A stretch of DNA of 29,206 nucleotides from NCBI RefSeq assembly GCF_026626585.1, contig NZ_JAPNKD010000014.1, positions 1 through 29,206 on the forward strand, written 5' to 3'. Below, in pieces: positions 2,546-23,519 of the stretch. The DNA is from Nannocystis sp. ILAH1 (GTDB lineage: Bacteria > Myxococcota_A > Polyangia > Nannocystales > Nannocystaceae). The number at the start of each line of letters is the position of its first letter. Within the stretch, counting starts at the first letter, position 1. The translations under genes were made by a program, and so were the position numbers. Under the pieces are notes generated by a model. The model had not been told where the DNA came from. It ran no database searches and was given only the letters and a program-made list of their open reading frames with translations.

Positions 2546-2879
2546 GCTCGCCAGGGTACGAGAGTCGAGCGAAGGCCGGCAACTCGCGCCGCCGCAGGCG
2601 ACGTCCGCGGGCAGGTGCGCCCTGAGCCCACCCATCCGGCCGAAGCCGCGCCCGCGGAGCAGCGTCGGAGGAAAGATGCAGCGCGTCCGTGCGCGGACCG
2701 TTACGCGGCCGTCAGGTCGGAGCAGTCCGCCGCGCGATCGCGACGTGAAGACGGCAGGCGCGGCGGGTCCTCACGCGGGCGAGGCGAGGACCACGAAGGT
2801 GGAGCGCAGCGATCGCTTCCGTGGCGAGGACGGGTCGAGAGGAGGCGCGCCGTGGGAAGACTCGGCGCCGATGCCGGCG

Positions 2880-3059
2880 AAGGGGATGCGTCCGGACCCG
2901 GGTCACGCCGGCGGGTCGCGCCACCCGAAGTCGATGCGCTCGCCCTCCTCAGGGCAGCTCTGCGAGCAGCTCGGGGCCGGGTCACGCCGGCGGGTCGGGC
3001 CGCTCGAAGTCGATGCTCGCGTCGCCTCGGGCAGCGAGAGCATCGACAATGCGAAGAGC
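2880..3059 (-). repeat. Two degenerate, frameshifted tandem copies (period about 90 nt) of the last ~25 codons plus stop of the adjacent small gene 3060-3305
   Basis: Minus-strand translation of 2881-2960 gives ..PELLAELP, then after a +1 shift EEGERIDFGWRDPPA-stop. 2971-3050 gives ..ARGDASIDFERPDPPA-stop. Compare the true gene end AELLALLRKHVPEEGEGIDIEWRDEPA-stop. Each copy ends in ccggcgtgacccgg. Confidence 0.6.
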
Positions 3060-3305
3060 TCAGGCGGGCTCGTCGCGCCACTCGATGTCGATGCCCTCGC
3101 CCTCCTCGGGCACGTGCTTGCGCAGGAGGGCGAGCAGCTCGGCGTCGACCTGGTTCTCCTCGAGGTAATCGAGGGTGTCGCGGTCGATGTAGTAGTCGCG
3201 GTCGTCGGCGCTCTCCTCGACGAGGAGATCGATGAGGTCGCGCAGCTGGTCGTCGGTGATAGGTCCGATCAGGGCGCCGGTCTGCTTGTTGTAGAGGCGA
3301 GTCAC
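3060..3305 (-). CDS. Small acidic protein, about 81 aa (VTRLYNKQTGALIGPITDDQLRDLIDLLVEESADDRDYYIDRDTLDYLEENQVDAELLALLRKHVPEEGEGIDIEWRDEPA), function unknown
   Basis: Excellent GC-rich codon usage (GC3 above 90%) and non-low-complexity sequence. There is no ATG in frame. GTG at 3305 is the nearest start. The track's longer version (GTG at 3461, 133 aa) adds an Arg/Pro-rich N-terminus and would run through hairpin repeat 1, so I treat it as the less likely alternative. Confidence 0.6.
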   Translation of the reverse strand: MTRLYNKQTGALIGPITDDQLRDLIDLLVEESADDRDYYIDRDTLDYLEENQVDAELLALLRKHVPEEGEGIDIEWRDEPA

Positions 3306-3430
3306 GCGGGGATGGTAGCCGGTCCGGGGCGGCGGCGCGACGCTGGTCGGACGGCGGGCGAACGGGCCGCCGGGAGCCGCGCGAGGGCGGCTCTGCTCGC
3401 TCGCGGCGCGGTCGTCCGGCCGGTCCGGCC

Positions 3431-3564
3431 GGACCTGGCCGATGGGGCAGGTTCTGGCCACGGAGCCGTTCGCGCGTCCGCCCGGGCGGCCGGACCTGGC
3501 CGGTGGGACAGGTCCGGCCCGCGGTGGCGGTCGCGCGGGCGGACCTGGTCTGTGGGACAGGTCA
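3431..3564. repeat. Three direct copies (3431-3454, 3492-3515, 3541-3564) of GGACCTGG-N8-GGGACAGGTCC, each an inverted repeat GGACCTG-N10-CAGGTCC giving a 6-7 bp hairpin; the array starts on the stop codon of gene 3562-4428
   Basis: Read directly. The third copy overlaps the stop triplet at 3562-3564. A 14-bp perfect palindrome GGTCCGGCCGGACC precedes copy 1 at 3422-3435. Candidate U-less intrinsic terminators, REP-like stabilisers or operator array upstream of the small acidic gene. Confidence 0.6.
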
Positions 3565-4428
3565 GACGGGGCAGCCGGGCTCGCCCATGTCGCAGCAGAG
3601 GCAGACGGAGGTGCCCATGTCGTCGCCGCAGAAGCCGTGGTCGTACAGGGCCATCATGGCGTCGCCGACCTCGGTACACTGGACGAAGCAGTCGAACTGC
3701 GACAGCTTGCCGTAGATGCAGGTGTTGAGGTTGGTGTCGTCCTCGCAGCTGGCGGGGTCGCTGTTCTCGCAGGCGGTGCCGGGGCCGTCGCCGCAGATGA
3801 ACTCGACGGTCTTGCCGGTGTCGACGCAGCCGTAGGCGAAGTCGTAGCCGTCGAAGCTGCAGCTGTCCTTGGCGAGGTTGGGCTCGAGCACCCAGGTGGC
3901 GCCGTCGCAGCGGTAGACCTGGCTGCCCTCGGGGCCGCAGGCCTCGGTCATCGTGCACCAGAACTGGCCGTTCTGGCAGTTCTCGGGCGGCGGCTGCTCG
4001 CCCTGGCACTCGACGCCGCCGGTGGTGGTGCCCTCGCTGGTGTCAGTGGTCTCGGTGGTGCTCGCGGTCGCCTCGGTGGTGGTCGTGGTCGAGCTGGTCT
4101 CCGGCAGCGTGGTCGACTCGGTGGTCGGGCCGGTGGTGGTGGTCGGCTCGCTGGTCGAGGTCGGCTCGACGGTGGTGGTGCCGACGCTCGAGACCGTGGT
4201 GGTGTCCTCGACCGGACAGCAGGACAGGTCGTTCGGGTCGTCGGTGCAGTACTCGAAGCCGTCGTTGCAGTAGCAGGTCTCGCCGTCGAGGTACGAGTTG
4301 GGGTCGTCGCACACGAACTCGCCGGTGTCGGAGTCGGAGGTGTTCGTGGTGTTGCCGCCGCCGATGATGCAGGCCGACGCGAGCCCCAGGAGGGCCAGGA
4401 GCGCGATTTTGCGAGGTAAGCGAGCCAT
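3562..4428 (-). CDS. Cys-rich putative lipoprotein (288 aa): signal peptide with lipobox-like LASAC, Thr-rich linker, two Cys-rich modules; no recognisable domain
   Basis: ATG start, high GC3, N-terminal MARLPRKIALLALLGLASAC. Only 32 nt separate it from the upstream gene 4461-5669. A T6 run lies immediately 5' of the ATG. Confidence 0.8.
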   Translation of the reverse strand: MARLPRKIALLALLGLASACIIGGGNTTNTSDSDTGEFVCDDPNSYLDGETCYCNDGFEYCTDDPNDLSCCPVEDTTTVSSVGTTTVEPTSTSEPTTTTGPTTESTTLPETSSTTTTTEATASTTETTDTSEGTTTGGVECQGEQPPPENCQNGQFWCTMTEACGPEGSQVYRCDGATWVLEPNLAKDSCSFDGYDFAYGCVDTGKTVEFICGDGPGTACENSDPASCEDDTNLNTCIYGKLSQFDCFVQCTEVGDAMMALYDHGFCGDDMGTSVCLCCDMGEPGCPV

Positions 4429-4460
4429 GGCGAAAAAATGACATAAACCCGCGGGGCGCG

Positions 4461-5669
4461 TCAGGGCAATTTATCGCCCGTGTCGCACAGGAAGCGGAAG
4501 CTGTAGCCGCCCGGCTGGGGCAGGGCCTTGTAGCTCTTCACGCTGCCGTCCTGGTTCCACTGGTAGAGCATCGAACAGCCCTCGCACGCCCCGAGCTCGT
4601 CGGGCTCGCCGCTGCCGACGGCGACGTCGCTGACGAACCACGCCTGGTCGTCGCCGGCGCGCCACTCGGGACAGTCGAGCCCGTTGAGCGGCGCGTCGAC
4701 GCAGCTCTCGCCCGCGGTGACTGGATAGATCCCCAAAATCTGCAGGTAATCGGCGCCGCTCTTCACCGTGCCGCCCCCGACCGGCTCGAGATTGTCGCCG
4801 GTGGCGACCTCGTAGGCGACGCCGAGGTGCGCCGGGCTGCGCGGGACGAACAGCTGCATGCCCCAGTCGGCGCAGGCGGCCTCGGCGGTGGCGGCGGTGG
4901 CCGGGTTGGGGTTCATGCCGCCGGCGACGTCGACCTTGAGGAAGGTGTAACCGCCGCCGTCGACGGCCGGATCGAGGGCGCACCAGACGTCGATCGGGTC
5001 CATGATGCCTTCGCGGCGGACGCTGAAGACGCCGCTGACGGCCTCGGGGGTGGCCTCCAGCCACTCGAGGCAGCTGTGGGCGTACCGGCAGGTGGGCAGG
5101 CAGTCGGGGCCGTCCTCGCAGTCCTCGTTCTCGGGATCGACCTGGCCGTCGCCGCAGCCGGGGGCGGCGGCGCTGCAGTCGGCGAGGCAGCTGCCGTAGG
5201 TGCCGTCGTTGGTGCCGTCGTCGCAGACCTCGTCGCCGTTGAGGACGCCGTCACCGCAGGCGGGCAGGAGGCAGGCGGTGGTACAGGCGCCGTCGTCGGC
5301 GTTGTCGGGGCCGAGGTCGCACTCCTCGGCGTCCTTGGCGACGAGGCCGTCACCGCACGTGGCGTTGCGACAGTCGGAGGTGCAGGCGCCGTCGTCGGCG
5401 TTGTCGGGGCCGAGGTCGCACTGCTCGTCGGCGTCGACGAAGCCGTCGCCGCACACGGGCTCGGCGGTGGTGGCGGGCTCGCTCGTGGTCGGTTCGCCCG
5501 TGGTCGGGTCGCTCGGGGAGACGCCGGTGGTGTCGACGGCGGTGGTGGTGCCCGGGCCGGTGGCGGTCGACTCGGTCTCGGTGTTGGCGTTGGGGTCGAG
5601 GCAGGCCTGCAGGGCCAGGGCCGTGACGCTCAGTTGCAGCGAGATCCGGAGACGCGGCGCGGTGGGCAT
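4461..5669 (-). CDS. Putative lipoprotein (402 aa): signal peptide/lipobox (ALALQAC), Thr-rich linker, 4-5 Myxococcus cysteine-rich repeats (CGDGxV..EECDxG), C-terminal ~200-aa globular domain (possibly C-type-lectin-like)
   Basis: ATG at 5667-5669 and high GC3. Repeats read directly (CGDGFVDADEQCDLGPDNADDGACTSDCRNAT; CGDGLVAKDAEECDLGPDNADDGACTTACLLPA; CGDGVLNGDEVCDDGTNDGTYGSCLADCSAAAPG; CGDGQVDPENEDCEDGPDCLPTC). The C-terminal segment AEAACADWGMQLFVPRSPAHL is CTLD-like, from memory only. Confidence 0.85.
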   Translation of the reverse strand: MPTAPRLRISLQLSVTALALQACLDPNANTETESTATGPGTTTAVDTTGVSPSDPTTGEPTTSEPATTAEPVCGDGFVDADEQCDLGPDNADDGACTSDCRNATCGDGLVAKDAEECDLGPDNADDGACTTACLLPACGDGVLNGDEVCDDGTNDGTYGSCLADCSAAAPGCGDGQVDPENEDCEDGPDCLPTCRYAHSCLEWLEATPEAVSGVFSVRREGIMDPIDVWCALDPAVDGGGYTFLKVDVAGGMNPNPATAATAEAACADWGMQLFVPRSPAHLGVAYEVATGDNLEPVGGGTVKSGADYLQILGIYPVTAGESCVDAPLNGLDCPEWRAGDDQAWFVSDVAVGSGEPDELGACEGCSMLYQWNQDGSVKSYKALPQPGGYSFRFLCDTGDKLP

Positions 5670-5814: not shown

Positions 5815-8800
5815 TCAGCGCGACTTGACCTCGAAGCCGAGGGCGCGGCGGGCCCCGACGTAGGCGGGGCTGACTGCGAAGACCAGGAGGTCGCGCAGGT
5901 CGGCGTCGAAGGCCGCGCGGGCCTTGAGGGCGGCGCTGCGTTCGCCTGGCTCTTGGGGCAGGCCGAGGATGTCGAGGGCGGCGCCGAGGTTGCGCGACAG
6001 GCACAGGCCGACGCGGTCGCCGGAGCGCTGGACCCATGCGCGCCAGTCGCGGCTGTCGAAGCCCTCCTGCTCGCGCTCCTTGAAGCCGGTGCTGAGCTGG
6101 CGGGCCAGGCGGATCGGCAGCTTGCGCGCGAGGGTCTGGCCGAGCCGCGTGGCCAGGTCGGCCTCGTCGCGGGCGCGCACGCGCCGGGTGTGGCGCGGGT
6201 GGAAGGCCTGCAGGGCGGCCGCGAGGACGCCGGCGAACAGCGGCTTCGGCAGGCCGGAGACGAGGATCGCGGCGGGGCGGGTGAAGAACATCGCGCGCCC
6301 GAGGGCGAAGCGCAGCCGCGGGGCGGTGGTCTCGGCGCGGGCGGCCGGGCCGACGAGGATCACCGGCGGGTGCACGCACGAGACGCTGGTCCAGCCGCCC
6401 TCGACGCGCATGTCGGGGAGCAGCTCGACGTCGGCGAGGCGCACGCCCTGGGCCGGCATCTGCGTGCCGAGCTCGGTCCAGACCTTCCACAGGAGGGTGT
6501 CCTTGTCGGTCTCGGCCTCGATCCAGGCGGCCTCGCTGAACTGCGGGCGCGGCAGCTCTTCGGCGAGCAGCTCGGCGGCGCCCTCCCACAGCGCGGTGAG
6601 AGCCGGGACGACGCCGGCGTCGGCGGGGGCCGGGTCGATGACCGTGGCGGGGTCGAGCTTGCCGCTGCGCACCGACAGCAGCTCGTGGCTGGTGAGGAAG
6701 GCGCCGGCCTCGGCGTGGCCGGGGCTGACGATCCGCAAGAGCTGGTGGATGGCGTGGGCGCGGCCCTCCTCGCCGTTCTCGGCGCAGTGGCGGGCGAGCG
6801 CGGCCAGGCTGGCCTCGTCGAGCGGGTCGAGGTGGAGCAGGGCGTCGGAGTTGCTGCGCACCTGCGGGCCCTGGATCTTCTCGTCGGCGTAGAGCCGGGC
6901 GAGCTGGCGCCGCGGGGCCAGGCCGAGGCCGGTCGGGTCGAGCTCGGCGGCCCGCTCGAGCAGCCGGATCGCCTGCGCGGGTCGGCTGTCCTTCGGGTCA
7001 GGCGAGGGCTCGGCCTGGACCACGAGGTCGGCCAGGCGGACCAGCAGGCGCTGGCGATCGCGGGCCTCGCGTGGGTCACCAGGCGGCTTCTGGACGCTGT
7101 CCTTGGCCAGGTAGGCGCGCACCGCCGGCTCGATCTCGTCGACGGCGCCGGCGGCCCGCAGGGCGTCGACGAGGCCGTGGATCGGGGCGGCGGCGTCGGG
7201 CAGCAGCTCGACCGCGGCGCGGGCGTAGCCGAGCGCGCGCTCGGGGTCGCCGGGTTCGCCGCGCTGGAGGGCGATCTTGACGCCCTCGAGCAGGAAGCCG
7301 GCCCGCTTGGCGTCGCGCAGGTCGGGGTGGTGCAGCAGGCGGTCGAGGCAGCCGAGGGCGATGCCGGCGTTGCGCGAGACGGCGGTCCAGAAGGCGGCCT
7401 CGAGCTGGCGGCGGTCGAGGACCGGGTGCGGGATGTGCTGGATCAGGGCGAGGCCGGCCTGGACGGCGTCGAAGGCGGCGCCGAGGATCTTCTGCGCGGA
7501 GACGCTGACGACGGTCTCCTCGCCGGTCTCGGCGGCGGCCCCTGCGGCCTCGTGGAACAGCATGCCGGCGGCGAGCAGGGCCCGGCCGCGGGCCTCGGGG
7601 TCCTGCTCGAGGTCGGCGAGGGCGAGGGTGTGCTCGGCGGCGTCGACCAGCCTGCCTGACTCTTGGGCCAGCTGGGCCAGGGCCGCGCGGGCCTTGCGGT
7701 GGCGCGGGGCCAGCTCGAGGGCGCGGGCGTAGCGAGCGGCGAGGCGCTCGGCGGGGGCGTTCTGCTTGGCGTCGCACTCGGCGGCGAGGATCAGCAGGTC
7801 GGCGACCACGGGGGCGCGCTCGGGCGGGACCGGGGTGCCGGCGGCGAGGCGCTGCTCGACCGGCTCGAGCGCGGCGACTGCGTCGCGGTGGCGGCCGGCG
7901 GCGGCGCGGTTGTGGGCCATGGCGGCGCGGATCTCGAGGTCGTCGGGGACGTGGCGCAGGGCCATCGAGAGGCGGCGGTAGGCCTCGTTGGCGCGGTCTG
8001 TCTGTTCGAACAGGTGCGCCAGCATCAGCAGGCCCTCGACCAGGCGCGGCTGATCGCGGGTGAGGCCGAACGCCTCGACCGCGGCCTCGAGGATGGCCTC
8101 GGCCTCGGCGTGCAGGCCGGCGTCGATGAGGGCCGCGCCGAGGGCCAGGCGCGCGGGCGCGTAGTCGGGGTCGGCGGCGAGGGCGGCCTCGAAGCGCTGG
8201 CGGGCGCGCGCGAGCTCCTGGCCGCCGCGCAGCAGGGCGCGGCCGCTCTCGGTGAGGATCCGGGCGCGGATCTCGGGGTCGTCGATCTGGGCCAGCTGGG
8301 CGTCGAGCAGGGCGTCGGCGCCGTCGAGGTCGCCGGCGGCCAGGCGCAGGCCGACCAGGCCCTCGATCGCCTGCGACAGCCGGCGGCTGCGCTGCGGGGC
8401 GCCGGGGGCCAGCTCGGCGAGGACGCGGGTGAACAGCTGGGCAGCCAGCTCGGGCTCGCGCAGGCGGTCGCGGGCGATCGCGGCGGCCTCGAGGATGCCG
8501 TCGGGCTCGGCGACGGCGGCGAGGCTGACGGTGAGGGCCCGGTCGTCGCCGAGGGTCCGCGCGAGGGCGACGCGGCGCTGCTGCAGGCCGAGCGCGGCCT
8601 CCGGCGGGGCGGCGGCGAGCGCCTCGTCGAGGGTCTCGAGCGCGCCGCGGGGGTCACCTGCCTCTTCGGCCAGGGCGGTCGCCAGGGCCTCGGCGATGCG
8701 CACGCGGCGGGCCGCCAGCGCCGGCGAGACCGGCTCGGGGATGTCGAACGGCAGCGGCTCCTCGTCGAGCGGCTCGGCGCGGACCTCCATGTCGCTGACG

Positions 8801-11800
8801 ATCTCGGCCAGGCGCCGGCGCAGCATCTCGACGCCGTCGTCCATGCGCCCGCCCTTGCGGTAGAGGCGGGACAGGCCGAGCACGACGTCGTCGTTCTCGG
8901 GGGCCTCGGCGGCGAGGGTCTCGAGGGTCCCTTGCGCGGCGGCCTCGTCGCCCTGGCCCTCTTGCAGGGCGCGGGCCTTGACGACGAGGAGGGCGATGCG
9001 GGCGTCGCGGTCGCCGGGCGCGACCTGGGTCAGGCGGCGGTCGAGGATCGGCAGCAGCTTGGCGTACTGCTCGGTGCGCAGGTAGAGGCTCTGCAGGCGC
9101 ACCAGGGCGTCGGGGTCGCCGGGGTTGTGGTCGAGGACCTCGGACCAGCCGGCGATCGCGGCGGCCGGCTGGCCGAGGCGCTCCTCGGTGAGGGTGGCGG
9201 CGCGGGCCAGGCAGCGCACGCGCGCGTCGGGGTTGGGCACGACCTCGGCGGCGGAGCGCAGGGCCTCGACGGCGCGGACCCACAGGCCCTCGCGCTGGAG
9301 GATCTCGATCAGCTCGGCGTGGACGTCGGCGGTCTCGGGGGTCTCCTTGACCAGCGCCTCGAGGCGGCGGATGGCCTCGAGCGAGCGGTCGGCGCGGTAG
9401 GCGAGGTCGCGCGCGAGCTGCAGGACGCGGGGGATCCGCTCGTCCAGCGGGAGGCCGTCGGCCTCGACGTCGTAGAGGCGCGCCGAGGCCTCGGCGGCCT
9501 CGCGCTCGCGGCCGGTCTTGGCGTGCAGCGCGGCCAGGCTGCGCAGCGCGCCCAGGTGCTTCGCCGAGACGGCGAGCACGCCGCGGTACTGCTCCTCGGC
9601 GCGCTCGGGCTGACCTGTCTGTTCGTACAGGTCGGCGAGGCGCAGGTGATAGGCGACGATGTGCTCGGGCAGGGTGAGGTCGGACAGCAGGCGCGACAGC
9701 GCGGCGATCAGGCGCTCCGGGTCGGCTGTCCTTTCGGCCATGTGGACGAGGCCCGAGAGCGCGACCGCGTCGTCGGGCACCAGCGCGAGGGCCTCCTCGT
9801 AGCGCTCGAGCGCGGCGTCGGGCATGCCGGCGCCCTCGTCCCACAGGCGAGCGAGCAGGCGCTGCAGGCCGGCGCGCTCGGACTTGCTGGCGGGGACGAC
9901 CGAGGCGTAGGCGTGGGCCAGCTCGTGCCAGGCGGAGCTGGCGGACGGGCGGCCGGGCAGGACCGGGGCGTCGAGCTCGGGCAGGGCCGGCAGGCCGGCG
10001 GTGACGGCGTCGATCAGCTCGCGGCTGGCGACCGGGGGCGGCGGCGGCAAGCTGGCCGCAGGGACAGGCTCAGGCGGGCGCGAGGGCGGCGGCGGGGCGG
10101 CGGGGCGGCGGGCCGGCGGCGGGGCCTTGGCGACCGGCTTGCCGCCCGGCGGGCGCGGCGGGGTCGGCTTGAGCGGCTTGGCGGCGGGCCGCGGCAGCGA
10201 GCGCTTGTGGGCGACCGGGCGCGGGGCGTCGTCGTCGAGCTCGAGCATCTCGTCGAGGTCGAGCACGCCCGAGACCTCGGCGCTCGGGCGCTTCGGCGCC
10301 GGGCCGACCAGGCTGTCCTCGATCGGCTCGAGGTCGGCGAGGTCGAACACGCCGCTCTCCTGGCGCGGCAGGCCGGCCGCGCGCACGCTGACCGAGCCGG
10401 ACGCCTCGACGGCCTCGAGGTCGGCGATGTCGACGATGTCGGTCTCGCCGCGGGCCGGCCGCGGGGCGCGGATCTTGACCGCGGTGGCCGACAGCTCGAC
10501 GGGCTCGAGGTCGGCGAGGTCGACGATGTTGGTGTGCGTCTCGCTGCGGACGGTCTTGCCCGGGCGGGCGACGACCTCCTTGCCACCGCCGCGCCGCAGC
10601 TCCTCGAGCGGCTCGAGCTCGGACAGCTGGATCTCGGCGGTCGGGCGCGACACCTCCTCGAGGTCGTCGAGCTCCATCACGCTCGACTCCTCTTTCTTGC
10701 GGGCCTTGACGGCCATGCGCGGGGCGAGCGTGTCGGGGTCGAGGCCGAGCTTGCGCCACTGGTCGCGGTCGGCCAGCTCGGGCGGGACGATCTGCGGCCA
10801 CAGCAGCGGGTCGCGGGCCGGCGGCGGGGCGGTGTAGGTGCCGGTCAGGCTGGCGAGGTGCCACATCTTGCTGTGGACGGGCCCGAGCTCACCTGTCTCG
10901 GGGGGCAGGTCGCCCTGCAGCTTCCAGGCGGCGATCCGGGCCCTGAGCGCGTACTCGGGCCGGCCGAGGCAGTTCTCGTAGAGCTCGGCGATCTGGGTCA
11001 GGAGCTTGCCCTGCTGGGCCCTGCCTGTCCCGAAGGCCAGCTCGCTCGCGGGCGCGAGCAGGAGCAGGTGCCACAGGTTGTCGCGCTCGGCCAGGCGGTC
11101 GAGCTCGAAGCGGGCCTCCTCGCTGCCGGGGTGGAGCGAGAGGGCGCGCAGCCACTCGGCGATGGCGCCGGCGGTGTCGCCGAGGCCGGCGCGCAGCTCG
11201 GCGCGGCGCTTGAGCAGCGACAGCTTGAGCGCGGGGTCGACGGTCTGGCCGATGATCTGCTGGGTGACCGACAGCAGGGTGAGCGCGCCGGTCGGCGGGG
11301 TGTCGGGGCTGCGCTTCTCGTCGACCTTGGCGGCCATCGCCTCGATCGCGGGCATCAGCGCGGTGCCGTCGCGGTCGTAGGCGACGCCGAGCCGCAGGGT
11401 GCGCAGGGCCGCGAGCGGGTCCTGGCGCTTCTCGTAGTCGATGCGCGCCGAGTCCTTGAGCTGGTTGAGGCCGCCGCGTTCGTTGCGCTGCAGCTTGGCG
11501 AGCGCGAGGCCGCGGTGGTGATCGGCGAGCTCGGGCCAGAGCTGGTGGCGCTGGGCCAGCTCGGTCATCAGGCCGGCGGCCTCCTCGGCGAGCGAGGGAT
11601 CGGCGGGGCGCAGGTCGGTCTCGGCCCGCCGCAGCCACTGGAACGCGCGCTTGTGATCGTTGAGGTGGCGCTCGTAGATCTTGGCGATGGCGACGCAGGC
11701 GTCGAAGCGGCCGAGGCCGGTCTTGGCGCGGCCGAGCTTGAGCTCCTGCAGGTCGATCAGCGCCTGCCACATCTGGTGGGCCTCGCCGAGGGCCTCGATC

Positions 11801-17743: not shown

Positions 17744-19051
17744 TCAGAAGCGGCCGGTGAGGCTGACGAGGGCGCCGCGCGGGGTGGGGCTCATGCCGGC
17801 GGAGAAGCGGCGGCCGCGATCGTTGCGGTGGAGCAGCGGGACGAGGACGCCGATGGCGGTGCCGGCGACGGAGCCGAACAGGACGTCGGTCCAGAAGTGC
17901 TTGCCGGCCTCGACGCGCAGGACGCCGGTGGTGGCGGCGAGGCCGACTGCGACCAGCCAGGCCGGGACGGCGGCGCGGGCCCGCGGGTGACGCAGGGTGA
18001 AGAGGGTGGCCCAGGCGCTCATCATGGCGAAGGCGGTCGAGGTGTGACCTGAATAAAAGGACAGGCGCGCCTCCTCGGCCTGGACGTCTCCGAGGTCGCT
18101 CTCGGGCTCGTAGCTGTAGGGCCGCGGGCGGCGCACGGCGTACTTGACGAGGTTGTTGAGGCCGACGTTGACGGCGAGGACCTCGAACAGGACGACCACG
18201 TCGCGGGCCCAGCCGCCGGCGGCGTGGCGGTAGGAGCCGGGGGCGCGGCGGCCGGCGACGAGGGTGTCGGCGAGGTCGGCGACGATCGGGGCGGCGATCG
18301 CGGTGTAGAGGAGGGCGTCGGAGGCGTGGGCGGCCGCGAGGCTCTCGTTGCCGAGGACGCGCCGATCGAGGCCGTTGATGTGGCTGCGGTCGCAGGTCTG
18401 ACAGCCGGACCAGCGCATGTCGCGAGCCGCGAGATCGGTGCCGAGCCACATGACGAGGCCGAGGGCGATGACGGGGACGTCGACGGCCGGCCGCAGGCGC
18501 ATGAGGTGCGGCGGGAGGGCCGGCGGCGCGGGCGGGAGCGGGGGATCGGCGGCGGGGGTGGTGGGGACGGGCGGCGGAGATGTCCCGGAGGACATGTCTT
18601 CCGGGGCATTTGGGGAGGGATCGAGCGGGGCGGGGGCGGCTGTCCCGGGGGACATGTCGCCGGGGGCGGCCGGATTGGCTGTCCCCGAGGACGTGTCTTC
18701 GAGGGGCGGGGCGGGCGATGGCGTGACGGCTGTCCGTAGGGCCAGGTTGGCGGGTGGGATCGTGGTCAGGAGGCCTGTCTCTGGGGACAGGTGCGCAGAG
18801 GCGGGCGGCGGGACGGTCGGGGCCGCGGCCAGGGCGGATATCCCTGGGGACAGGTGGGTGGCGGCGGAGGACGGAGCGGCCGCCGACGGGAGGGCCAGCG
18901 AGGGTGTCCTCTCGGGCATGTCATCCGAGACATGTCCCGAGGGCCCGGCGGGCTGCCAGGCGCCCGGGCCGGGGGGGCGCGCCAGCGGGTGGGCGGCCGC
19001 AGGCGGGGCGGCGAGGGCGAGGACCAGGGCCAGGGACAGGCAGCGCGACAT
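17744..19051 (-). CDS. PAP2-family (acid phosphatase / phosphatidic-acid-phosphatase type 2) membrane-associated phosphatase with signal peptide and a ~200-aa Pro/Ser-rich repeat linker
   Basis: All three PAP2 motifs are present in the C-terminal part: KYAVRRPRP (KX6RP), YSGHTS (PSGH), RVEAGKHFWTD (SRX5HX3D). ATG at about 19051 begins MSRCLSLALVLALAAPPAAA. The track's TTG start at 19132 adds 27 non-signal residues. Confidence 0.8.
   Translation of the reverse strand: MSRCLSLALVLALAAPPAAAHPLARPPGPGAWQPAGPSGHVSDDMPERTPSLALPSAAAPSSAATHLSPGISALAAAPTVPPPASAHLSPETGLLTTIPPANLALRTAVTPSPAPPLEDTSSGTANPAAPGDMSPGTAAPAPLDPSPNAPEDMSSGTSPPPVPTTPAADPPLPPAPPALPPHLMRLRPAVDVPVIALGLVMWLGTDLAARDMRWSGCQTCDRSHINGLDRRVLGNESLAAAHASDALLYTAIAAPIVADLADTLVAGRRAPGSYRHAAGGWARDVVVLFEVLAVNVGLNNLVKYAVRRPRPYSYEPESDLGDVQAEEARLSFYSGHTSTAFAMMSAWATLFTLRHPRARAAVPAWLVAVGLAATTGVLRVEAGKHFWTDVLFGSVAGTAIGVLVPLLHRNDRGRRFSAGMSPTPRGALVSLTGRF
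18585..18960. repeat. Intragenic minisatellite-like array: 6-7 imperfect tandem units of about 60-66 nt, each beginning TGTCC(C/G)NGG(A/G)GGACA(T/G)GTC (palindromic GGACATGTCC / GGGGACAGGTG cores), encoding the PEDMSSGT / PGDMSPGT / HLSPE repeats of the PAP2 linker
   Basis: Read directly on both strands. Units at about 18581, 18641, 18686, 18771, 18838 and 18906. Another GGGGACAGGTG is at about 19106. Confidence 0.7.
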
Positions 19052-19195
19052 GCTCGGTCGGACGAGTATGCCCAATCGCGGCCCGGCGGCGCCGAGGGAG
19101 ATGGCTTTGGGGACAGGTGATTGCGGGCTCAAAGGCGCGTCGATCGCGCTGCGCTGGCTGAGGACGGCCGGGTCGGGCTACATTGGCGTCCAGCG

Positions 19196-22326: not shown

Positions 22327-23433
22327 ATGACGACCACGACCCGCCTCCTCACCTTGTCCTCGCTCTTCCTCGCATTGCCGGCCTGTGATTCGAAGGTCGA
22401 GGGTCACCACGCGAACGACGGCGACTCCACGGCCGGCGAGGCCGACAGCGAGGGCGCCGAAGAAGGCGAGGGCGACAGCGAGGGCGAGATCAAGAGTGAG
22501 GACGAAGGCGAGCCCGAGCCCGAGCCCAAGGCGGACTTCGGCCGTGCGGGCGAGATCTGCGACCAGTCCCAGCTGTCTGGCGAGTGTCAGATCGGCGGCG
22601 TCGCCGGCCTCGAGTTCTGCGTCTGGTCGCTCGATCAGTACAGCCACATCTGGACCGCCTGTCTGACGGAGACGTGCGCCAAGGAGGGCGACTCGCGTGC
22701 CTGTGACGGCGGCACCCAGCACTGCGTCGCTTACGAGGCGACCCCCGACACCGGCGAGACGCGCTGGGGCGAGTGCGGCGAGGCCGACGAGTGCAAGCCG
22801 GGCGACAGCCAGTCGTGCGGCTTCGGCGAGGAAGAATTCGACATCGACATGGGCTGCATGGTCGACGAGGAGACCGGCCGCCACGTGTGGAACTGGGAAG
22901 ACTGCAACACCCCGCTGGTGCTGAGCTTCGGCGACGCCATCGAGTTCGCACCGACCTCCGCCTCGGCGGCCGACTTCGACATCCACGGCGGCGCGGGCAG
23001 CTGCGCCCGCGCCGACTGGCCGACCGCCGCCACCCCGTGGCTCGCGCTCGACCGCGACGGCAACGGCAGCATCGACGGCGGCCAGGAGCTGTTCGGCGCC
23101 GCCACACGCCTGTCCTTCGGGTCAGGTGTGCATAACGGCTTCCAGGCCCTCGCCGAGCTCGACAGCGACCGCGACGGCAAGATCACCGCCGCGGACGCGC
23201 GCTGGGGCGAGCTGATGCTGTGGGCCGACCACGACGCCGACCGTCGCTCGAGCGGGTGGGAGATGCTGCCGCTCGCGAGCTTCGAGATCGTCGAGATCGA
23301 CCTCGGCTTCACCACTCGCCGCGAGTGCGATGCGCGCGGCAACTGCGGCCTCGAGCGCGCCAGCTTCGTCTACCGCACCGCCGGCCAGCAGCGCTCCGGC
23401 GAGGTCGTCGACGTGCGCGTCGCCTGCGAATAA
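22327..23433 (+). CDS. Secreted acidic lipoprotein (368 aa) with Glu/Asp-rich linker, Cys-rich module and two EF-hand-like Ca-binding loops (DRDGNGSIDGGQE; DSDRDGKITAADA)
   Basis: ATG and high GC3. N-terminal MTTTTRLLTLSSLFLALPAC (lipobox-like LPAC). DxDxNG/DxDxDG loops read directly. Confidence 0.8.
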   Translation: MTTTTRLLTLSSLFLALPACDSKVEGHHANDGDSTAGEADSEGAEEGEGDSEGEIKSEDEGEPEPEPKADFGRAGEICDQSQLSGECQIGGVAGLEFCVWSLDQYSHIWTACLTETCAKEGDSRACDGGTQHCVAYEATPDTGETRWGECGEADECKPGDSQSCGFGEEEFDIDMGCMVDEETGRHVWNWEDCNTPLVLSFGDAIEFAPTSASAADFDIHGGAGSCARADWPTAATPWLALDRDGNGSIDGGQELFGAATRLSFGSGVHNGFQALAELDSDRDGKITAADARWGELMLWADHDADRRSSGWEMLPLASFEIVEIDLGFTTRRECDARGNCGLERASFVYRTAGQQRSGEVVDVRVACE

Positions 23434-23519
23434 TAAGACATGTCCACGGGGCGGCACGCTGGACATCACCTCACCTCGGCCCGGGCGCCGCAGCGACGAG
23501 GTTTGGCTGTGCGTGCTGC

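Follow-up and report, generated by a model that had tools for sequence, protein, structure and literature searches.

Genes and repeat units at the locus

The window, by which we mean the whole stretch of 29,206 nucleotides analyzed here, derives from a Nannocystis pusilla/exedens-like myxobacterium and has an overall G+C content of 72%. An array of short palindromic repeats lies between a lipoprotein-like gene and a small acidic gene, and the genes around it are on the minus strand. The features of this locus, in window coordinates, are as follows.

3060..3305, minus strand: downstream gene, encoding an 81-aa acidic protein with a GTG start
3306..3561 (256 bp), minus strand: non-coding gap carrying the array, with flat codon-position G+C and whole-unit insertions and deletions
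3312..3317, minus strand: TACCAT, a -10-like hexamer 6 nt before the GTG, read from the sequence
3422-3435, no strand: 14-bp perfect palindrome GGTCCGGCCGGACC, formed by the 3' flank of unit C (gene strand)
3431..3454, minus strand: repeat unit C, GAACCTGCCCCATCGGCCAGGTCC; -17.8 kcal/mol, z -1.6
3492..3515, minus strand: repeat unit B, GGACCTGTCCCACCGGCCAGGTCC, the best hairpin; -28.9 kcal/mol, z -4.1
3541..3564, minus strand: repeat unit A, reading TGACCTGTCCCACAGACCAGGTCC on the gene strand; 7 of 10 possible pairs; -9.0 kcal/mol, z -1.6
3562..4428, minus strand: upstream gene, encoding a Cys-rich and Thr-rich protein of 288 aa with a lipoprotein-type signal sequence

The protein encoded at 3562-4428 has 52 homologues, and those that are named are all from Nannocystis or the Nannocystaceae. 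The acidic protein shares 98% identity with one from Nannocystis exedens, and its 81-aa GTG start is supported by the length of its homologues, 21 of 22 of which measure 76-91 aa; one N. exedens record annotates the protein at 123 aa. Neither flanking protein matched a family in Pfam or NCBIfam, scans with the same two databases showed no DNA-binding regulator gene adjoining the array, and those ORFs of the window that were scanned with Pfam included no transposase family. The 3' end of the acidic gene (its last 50 nt) is itself triplicated in tandem, which suggests that the locus duplicates readily.

The initial annotation had placed the array inside an operon. This is doubtful, because TACCAT is kept in all six orthologous loci (6/6), even where the acidic gene lies behind a different upstream gene, suggesting that the acidic gene has its own promoter. 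The hexamer is not detected by a sigma-70 consensus scan; we infer that it is a candidate promoter of a leaderless acidic-gene mRNA.

The same annotation had described three direct copies of a hairpin, GGACCTG-N10-CAGGTCC, at 49-61 bp spacing, and as direct copies they were confirmed by pattern matching, shuffling and a repeat search. The pattern matched at 3431-3454, 3492-3515 and 3541-3564 with 1, 0 and 1 mismatches, respectively, and an unrelated match with 2 mismatches was found at 9611 within a CDS. Dinucleotide shuffling gave an expectation of 0.23 matches, with four reached in none of 100 shuffles, and the repeat search returned three 32-nt copies of 81-100% identity, 61 and 49 bp apart. 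The array does begin on a stop codon, since the first three gene-strand bases of the copy at 3541-3564 are the TGA of gene 3562-4428 ('tca' at 3562-3564). The small acidic gene (3060-3305, minus strand) does lie downstream of it, and the reported 14-bp palindrome is present, overlapping the flank of the leftmost copy. Position 3306, given as the start of the array, is simply the start of the intergenic gap; the repeats themselves span 3422-3564. As hairpins the copies were less uniform than described, the RNA fold clearly beating shuffles for the middle copy but not for the two others. Unit B forms a 7-bp stem, a T.C mismatch, 2 further bp and a 4-nt loop, and GGCC/GGCC flanks lengthen its stem. 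Folded alone, the palindrome GGTCCGGCCGGACC reached -19.6 kcal/mol (z -2.1), and the entire gap folded at z -2.1 (-2.13) against shuffles.

The gap is 81% G+C. The base composition of its transcript strand is C 48%, G 33%, A 11% and U 7% (C/G ratio 1.45), and nowhere in the 256 nt do three U stand together. Codon-position G+C lies at 0.80-0.84 in all frames, compared to 0.52/0.56/0.98 in the upstream gene, and this flat profile, combined with unit periods (36-83 bp) that are not multiples of 3, indicates that the gap is non-coding. N. pusilla, and in part N. exedens, conserve the promoter-proximal portion of the gap (3306-3421). Rfam gave no match in the whole window at the gathering score, and an E-value scan of 2800-3700 gave a sole match at chance level (E 0.77). 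A promoter and terminator consensus scan of 2800-4700 found no sigma-70-like promoter and no stem-plus-U-tract terminator.

Unit number and conservation in orthologous loci

We scanned one genome per species for the full motif, GGACCTGGNCNNTGGGNCAGGT, a near-equivalent form of the genome-wide search that the initial annotation had proposed. It was found in 35 stretches, six of which came from Nannocystis or the Nannocystaceae, the others being at about chance level. The full 22-nt motif is therefore rare and not a high-copy repeat, an 11.9-Mb N. pusilla contig having just two stretches, of which one is the orthologous locus; a shorter core, described below, is common. In this locus of N. pusilla Na p29 (L012), the flanking proteins are 95-100% identical to those of the window, and five units are spaced 36, 70, 69 and 72 bp apart, the first of which also reads TGACCTGTCC on the stop codon. 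Other orthologous loci were fetched using both flanking proteins. In a second N. pusilla assembly there are seven units, which recur every 38-73 bp. The six units of N. exedens recur every 61-83 bp; a further, degenerate unit overlies the stop codon there, and an extra 367-aa gene separates the array from the acidic gene.

The array thus sits after the stop codon of the lipoprotein-like gene in four genomes, and alignment of the four array-bearing gaps showed that close relatives differ by the gain and loss of whole units of about 50-80 bp. The overlap of the first unit with the stop codon goes back to the common ancestor of the pusilla/exedens group. Because this position is shared by descent, it represents one evolutionary event and not repeated evidence of function. 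In other Nannocystis species the array is absent or cut down to a palindrome or two: a pair of divergent hairpins (CCTGTCTCTTC(G/A)G type) occurs in N. bainbridge, N. punicea shows a single perfect palindrome, ACCTGTCCGATGGGACAG, 28 nt past the stop codon, and Nannocystis sp. SCPEA4 has no units, its array site being occupied by an IS110-family transposase gene just downstream. Where the acidic gene lies behind other genes (N. bainbridge L038 and metagenome locus L040) no array was found upstream of it, which argues that the array goes with the lipoprotein gene's 3' end rather than with the 5' side of the acidic gene.

We then compared pairing and sequence within the units. All 15 units of the window and N. 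pusilla share an internal mismatch at pair 8, where C faces T or C, pair at 7-9 of 10 positions and have GGCCA instead of GGACA as their second half-site. In N. exedens every unit retains GGACCTGTCCCATCGGCC, the 3' arm CAGGTCC is lost, and 4-7 of 10 positions pair. Compared with shuffles, the N. pusilla arrays folded at z -4.06 and -2.64; the N. exedens array (z -1.3) folded no better. Given the loss of this arm and the unremarkable fold in N. exedens, what is conserved is an 18-nt sequence and not a hairpin. Across 22 units of the orthologous arrays, covariation was nil, with 79.8% of cells paired against a shuffled mean of 79.8%, and mismatches showed no preference that would assign a functional RNA to one strand (7 G.U versus 11 A.C). 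Pairing in this array reflects shared sequence from recent duplication, without evidence of selection on the stem.

Two possible origins of the unit were considered. A copying of the last lipoprotein codons into each unit is suggestive in N. exedens, where GGCTGCCCCcTC stands before the cores, but weak in the window and N. pusilla, and is no more than a lead. A derivation of the repeat from the coding motif C-P-M-G-Q-V of the extra N. exedens gene is unlikely, this motif probably being a coincidental palindrome within a CDS.

A wider palindrome family

Judged by its sequence, the inner palindrome of the array belongs to a wider Nannocystis family with the core CCTGTCC-N4-GGACAGG, of which the variant at this locus reads GGACCTGYCC-N4-GGCCAGGTCC and has a fixed internal mismatch. 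The N. punicea palindrome pointed to the core TGTCC-N4-GGACA, which we therefore sought elsewhere. The strict pattern TGTC-N6-GACA occurred 16 times in 106 kb of non-redundant Nannocystis DNA, compared to 0-4 times at other spacings, and at that spacing was absent from other high-GC loci totalling 157 kb. Three more were present in 21 kb of Nannocystis sp. SCPEA4 sampled without bias, giving 19 in about 127 kb of sampled Nannocystis DNA, or roughly 1 per 7 kb; strain ST9, a more distant member of the Nannocystaceae, had none in the 21 kb sampled. Among 19 gene-annotated copies, 15 are intergenic, where intergenic DNA makes up 6-35% of each locus, and 10 of the 15 lie downstream of a stop codon, four of them at 1, 2, 28 and 34 nt. 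The pattern CCTGNC-N6-GNCAGG likewise gave 0-1 matches for other spacings and 19 for this one, a count that includes ascertained sites and one TPR-gene site counted in four orthologues. A relaxed pattern, CTGTCC-N4-GGNCAG with one mismatch and both arrays masked, proved noisy (8 at N4 versus at most 5 at N9) and was set aside, so that the family counts rest on the strict TGTC-N6-GACA.

Position counts over 237 family members showed invariant half-sites, TGTCC and GGACA, around a free 4-nt centre. These counts show no GTAG head; TGTCC is preceded by GGAC/GACC or CA/CC flanks. Among 143 distinct members the positions flanking the core covary, with a score of 0.150 versus 0.105 and none of 500 shuffles as high. 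This result beats both shuffle and slide controls, though kinship of the copies may inflate the score. In an 8-mer over-representation test ACCTGTCC alone stood out (17 observed versus 3.6 expected); the family signal lies in the spacing of the dyad and not in single words.

The window itself contains a second array of the family.

18560..19130 (copies at about 18580-19120), no strand: second array, same palindrome family, between a PAP2 core gene and a SUKH-family gene

All four TGTC-N6-GACA matches in the window fall within this array, at 18581, 18641, 18776 and 18919, against an expectation of 0.18. Degenerate copies lie at about 18680, 18730, 18843, 18900, 18935 and 19108, one of them of the GGCCA type seen in the first array. 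The second array lies upstream of genes rather than downstream, in a divergent upstream region. The Pfam PAP2 domain begins at residue 313 of a long ORF for which ATG 18502 is a plausible start, and codon-position G+C at the array is weak (0.74/0.71/0.84 versus 0.72/0.54/0.95 in the PAP2 core); this stretch may be non-coding or a low-complexity N-terminal extension.

Related arrays were also found in metagenomes, in a scan for two canonical palindromes 25-55 nt apart. It gave at least 120 stretches, including many unrelated low-GC tandem repeats, and we used the 50 loci with G+C of at least 0.66. Among the matches listed, locus L117 packs 29 palindromes into 9 kb. Neighbour distances are divisible by three in 103 of 142 cases, many arrays lie within long ORFs with high third-position G+C, and none of the loci is a close orthologue of the window. 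One array lies in frame in the linker between WH2 and WH3 of an Lhr helicase, and a second is appended to a TadA-like deaminase ORF as its C-terminal tail, each on a metagenome contig. Such in-frame arrays inside genes point to an expansion at the DNA level that is independent of any RNA role. Loci L114 and L150, by comparison, are plainly intergenic arrays with 17-bp periods that begin right after TGA. Two metagenome loci carry the Cys-rich DUF4215 repeat (the 'myxo' repeat of NCBIfam), as do genes of the window.

Full-text searches of the literature on Nannocystis and myxobacteria found no description of such a palindromic repeat family, and a 2025 survey of REP elements does not mention Myxococcota. 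We tentatively propose, at somewhat less than even odds, that CCTGTCC-N4-GGACAGG is an undescribed and highly iterated palindrome of Nannocystis and related uncultured high-GC bacteria, with the array at the lipoprotein gene as its visible tip. By extrapolation, it would number on the order of a thousand or more per 12-Mb genome. It may spread as head-to-tail arrays with periods of 17 to about 90 bp, both between genes, often from directly behind stop codons, and in frame within conserved genes. If this is true, a dedicated propagation mechanism or a binding protein is implied, along with a new source of variation in protein linkers and 3' UTRs of very large genomes. We rate the palindrome family as a more interesting lead than the array itself. 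Should a census confirm it, the family would provide VNTR markers for strain typing, explain some spurious long ORF calls in 72% G+C genomes (the 123-aa and 462-aa annotations), and offer a system for the study of hairpin-prone repeats and of their spread into the protein linkers and 3' UTRs of very large bacterial genomes.

Possible function and relation to known repeats

The array at the lipoprotein gene is a lineage-specific, non-coding tandem array, variable in unit number, of a palindrome found across the genus. It changes fast and is not a conserved regulatory switch. The reading we favour, with a probability of about 0.55, is that of a variable repeat resembling both REP elements and MIRUs, whose stem-loops incidentally cap the upstream mRNA. 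Units would multiply and vanish by replication slippage or unequal recombination, with hairpins helping. RNA polymerase reading out of the lipoprotein gene would turn each unit into a G+C-rich stem-loop without a U-tract, and these stem-loops may block 3'-to-5' exonucleases, as do those of E. coli REPs and of Rho-dependent 3' ends. The upstream mRNA would thereby acquire a stable 3' end and the downstream gene would be shielded from read-through. Termination itself would take place beyond the stem-loops, typically through Rho acting on RNA rich in C and poor in G, and the hairpin that holds the stop codon would be melted by the terminating ribosome. REP elements are clustered between convergent genes and shield the 3' ends of mRNAs (PMC3184786; PMC6061677), and RNA beyond Rho-dependent 3' ends is usually rich in C (Dar and Sorek 2018, PMC6061677). 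A REP-like RNA model accords with the siting of the units behind stop codons, a transcript poor in U and its C/G ratio of 1.45. The initial annotation had listed REP-like mRNA stabilisers among its options, and the REP-like part of this holds, the family being dispersed, mostly intergenic and found after stop codons; stabilisation is plausible by analogy, and the case for it is weakened by the lost 3' arm in N. exedens and the lack of covariation. The stem loss in N. exedens, the lack of covariation and the range of 0-7 copies together argue against a selected function. The two weak hairpins among the three of the window, and the position of its second array upstream of genes, also speak against the capping model. 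Any effect on mRNA is probably dispensable and incidental and not that of a tuned regulatory device.

In a rival account, the array is neutral or selfish repeat DNA, a hairpin-prone palindrome that slips wherever it is tolerated and has no effect on the expression of its neighbours. Copy numbers from 0 to 7 among close relatives, a hairpin gone in N. exedens, orthologous arrays without covariation, in-frame arrays in the Lhr linker and the TadA-like ORF tail, and the duplication-prone locus with its tandemly triplicated acidic-gene 3' end are all as this account would have it. However, the family is strongly concentrated in intergenic DNA and just past stop codons, the flank covariation in 143 members makes a structural constraint or a templated origin likely, and any transcribed stem of -18 to -29 kcal/mol will physically affect exonucleases to some extent. 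We consider pure neutrality rather unlikely, though it is the most serious competitor to the capping model. Termination by the hairpins themselves is far less probable. The initial annotation had suggested U-less intrinsic terminators, which would free RNA polymerase past the lipoprotein gene independently of Rho, and a G+C-rich stem-loop does stand directly after the stop codon, as family members often do at 1-34 nt from stops. A U-tract is, however, a required module of intrinsic terminators (PMC6061677), and the tract of about 7-8 nt expected directly after the stem is absent from a gap that is 81% G+C and 7% U without a UUU; the terminator scan was empty and the hairpin is not conserved in N. 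exedens. We consider this reading very improbable.

The annotation's third suggestion, a repeated operator, is also disfavoured. Here the units would be operator or architectural sites for a dimeric protein that recognizes xTGT-N8-ACAx dyads and controls the acidic gene or the local DNA. Such a dyad resembles the geometry of CRP, PadR or LexA sites, its spacing is strict (enrichment at N4/N6 only), its half-sites TGTCC and GGACA are invariant around a free 4-nt centre, the second array of the window lies in a divergent upstream region, and N. exedens keeps the core sequence without the potential to form a hairpin. Against this, the second half-site reads GGCCA in 15/15 units of the window and N. 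pusilla and is wholly absent in N. exedens. Copy number ranges from 0 to 7, the acidic gene occurs without an array in N. bainbridge and one metagenome relative, and no cognate regulator gene is adjacent. One strict site per 7 kb or so, 17-bp-period arrays and arrays inside coding sequences are also unlike a regulon, and a role as protein sites is improbable. Least credible of all is that the repeats are translated, either as an N-terminal extension of the acidic protein or as small MIRU-like ORFs. An open frame does run from GTG 3461 into the acidic gene (ORF 3060-3461, 133 aa), the 123-aa form in the one N. exedens record is of this kind, and one frame of each unit reads T-C-P-x-G-Q-V. But 21 of 22 homologues have the short form, the upstream region is unconserved in loci with a different neighbouring gene, unit periods that are not multiples of 3 place the units in different frames, and codon-position G+C is flat; we give this almost no weight. 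Other classes of element were tried and rejected. CRISPR was set aside because the spacers are homologous to one another and vary in length, the whole 50-80-bp unit being repeated. For CRISPR, retrons, riboswitches and sRNAs alike, the ORFs scanned include no RT or cas gene, Rfam gave no match, and the element is unconserved beyond the pusilla/exedens group. Without transcript data, the triple hairpin on the stop codon should not be annotated as a terminator or operator; the result points to a genus-specific Nannocystis palindromic repeat family.

Returning to the favoured REP- and MIRU-like reading, the array acts like a REP and looks like a MIRU-type VNTR, and is a member of neither. Like the REPs and BIMEs of Enterobacteria, Pseudomonas and Stenotrophomonas, the Nannocystis elements are short, G+C-rich, imperfect palindromes in many copies, sometimes clustered, mostly intergenic and often just past stop codons or between convergent genes, and on transcription would give U-less stem-loops able to protect mRNA 3' ends (PMC3184786; PMC6061677). 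The 24-nt units, with 7-9 of 10 pairs and -9 to -28.9 kcal/mol, are palindromes in the REP sense, and the IS110-family transposase at the array site in SCPEA4, a single case, recalls REPs as IS targets. Unlike REPs, the Nannocystis units lack a GTAG/CGTC head, the family also occurs in frame inside genes, and the host phylum is Myxococcota. BIMEs alternate in orientation, whereas these units are head-to-tail direct repeats with a homologous spacer. Strict-sense REPs number in the hundreds per genome, are extragenic and are associated with a RAYT (Y1 transposase) gene. In the Nannocystis sample of 127 kb the core occurs about once per 7 kb and most of its annotated copies are intergenic, the full 22-nt motif is rare, and some copies and arrays are in ORFs.

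With MIRU-type VNTRs the array shares tandem units of 40-100 bp in an intergenic position between co-oriented genes of a high-GC genome (PMC3184786). It likewise shares a G+C-rich composition, internal inverted repeats, an array end that overlaps the upstream stop codon, and a variable number of units (3, 5, 7 and 6; periods of 49 and 61 bp in the window, 36-73 bp in N. pusilla and 61-83 bp in N. exedens). MIRU units contain small ORFs that are in phase with the neighbouring genes, whereas the Nannocystis array maintains none; it also stops about 115 nt before the next start codon instead of overlapping it, and MIRUs belong to a different, mycobacterial genus. The stem-loops of Rho-dependent 3' ends are similarly stable, U-less and followed by C-rich, G-poor sequence (PMC6061677), but they are single and form no repeated sequence family, whereas the Nannocystis units are arrayed. 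In-frame fusions of repeats to genes have been reviewed (PMC3184786), and the Rickettsia palindromic elements resemble the present family in that related palindromes lie in frame inside real genes (the Lhr linker and the TadA-like tail). Those elements are single insertions of 100-150 bp, compared to palindromes of 14-18 bp arrayed here with periods of 17-90 bp, and the array at the lipoprotein stop codon differs from them in being non-coding.

A second palindrome array and single copies in the window

A further array of the family built on the core CCTGTCC-N4-GGACAGG was found in the window, together with isolated family-like elements:

18560-19130, second array, flanked by the PAP2 core gene and the SUKH-family gene
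23438-23468, hairpin GACATGTCCA-N13-TGGACATC, directly 3' of the EF-hand-like gene (22327-23433) and its TAATAA stop
6986-7001, 10052-10067, 10893-10908, 11025-11040 and 23110-23125, single near-palindromes of the CTGTCC-N4-GGNCAG type, within coding sequences

Perfect matches to TGTC-N6-GACA are located at 18581, 18641, 18776 and 18919 in the second array, which also contains some six degenerate copies at intervals of 40-67 bp. A naive ORF call reaching 19132 takes in the whole array, and this stretch may be either non-coding or a low-complexity N-terminal extension. The hairpin beyond the EF-hand-like gene has family-like arms and a long loop. The near-palindromes within coding sequences are hosted by the gene for the 3233-aa TPR protein and by the EF-hand-like gene; with both window arrays masked, their spacing was in modest excess compared to other spacings.

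The array region in other Nannocystis species

The array region downstream of the lipoprotein gene differs in content among species. N. exedens has an additional gene for a 367-aa Cys-rich secreted protein (L036 2815-3967) between the array and the acidic gene, preceded by an unusually AT-rich stretch and missing from both the window and N. pusilla. This gene contains an in-frame CCTGTCCGATGGGACAGG, which reads C-P-M-G-Q-V, and a similar 362-aa gene with an equivalent of the site is present in N. bainbridge (L042 4932-6020). In Nannocystis sp. SCPEA4 (L044 4352-5870), the place that the array takes in other species, shortly past the lipoprotein gene, is occupied by an IS110-family transposase gene. 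Three family palindromes come after it, at 5401, 5638 and 5855, an arrangement reminiscent of IS110-type elements that target REP sequences. The same intergenic region of N. punicea (L043) holds an unrelated minisatellite at ~3960-4140, with a period of ~34 bp and units like cgacgagcgtcgcaccccatcgatgca, and more family palindromes at 4208 and 4418.

Repeats and a conserved hexamer at the acidic gene

The last ~50 nt of the acidic gene, stop codon included, are tandemly triplicated in the window (2893-3099) at a period of 78-79, with copies 70-86% identical to the reference:

3050-3099, acidic-gene-end copy
2972-3021, acidic-gene-end copy
2893-2942, acidic-gene-end copy

An inverted repeat (3034-3048 / 3086-3100) brackets the stop codon. 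The triplication is likewise present in N. pusilla (L012 ~6060-6260), where the acidic gene itself has a different C-terminus and the gene end of the window is matched by the second copy. On the minus strand, TACCAT (3312-3317) precedes the GTG start of the acidic gene by 6 nt. It was conserved in all six orthologous loci regardless of the upstream gene and, judged from sequence, may serve as the -10 element of a leaderless acidic-gene mRNA.

Arrays in metagenome contigs and over-long gene calls

High-GC metagenome contigs carried palindrome arrays both in frame within genes (L054, L164, L117) and between genes (L114, L150):

L054 4434-4735, Lhr helicase, WH2-WH3 linker, aa ~1052-1152
L164 8182-8400, TadA-like deaminase ORF, C-terminal tail, aa 219-291
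L117 1978-4380, ORF of 2205 aa without a Pfam match, containing 28 copies
L114 9737-9870 and L150 8892-8996, intergenic, 17-bp period, TGTCCCATCGGACAgcc repeated 6-9 times

The Lhr array examined, that of L054, is read as CTG TCC nnn nGG ACA GGn, giving L-S-x-x-T-G. Both intergenic arrays begin a few bases past a TGA, and their adjacent arms are able to pair in more than one register.

In this 72% G+C DNA, repeat arrays hold frames open and favour over-long ORF calls, as in the 133-aa (3060-3461) and 462-aa (17744-19132) ORFs of the window and in the N. exedens acidic protein, annotated as 123 aa (L036 4001-4372). In UniRef this 81-aa acidic protein goes under the name 'galactosyldiacylglycerol synthase', apparently a carried-over misnomer given its small size.
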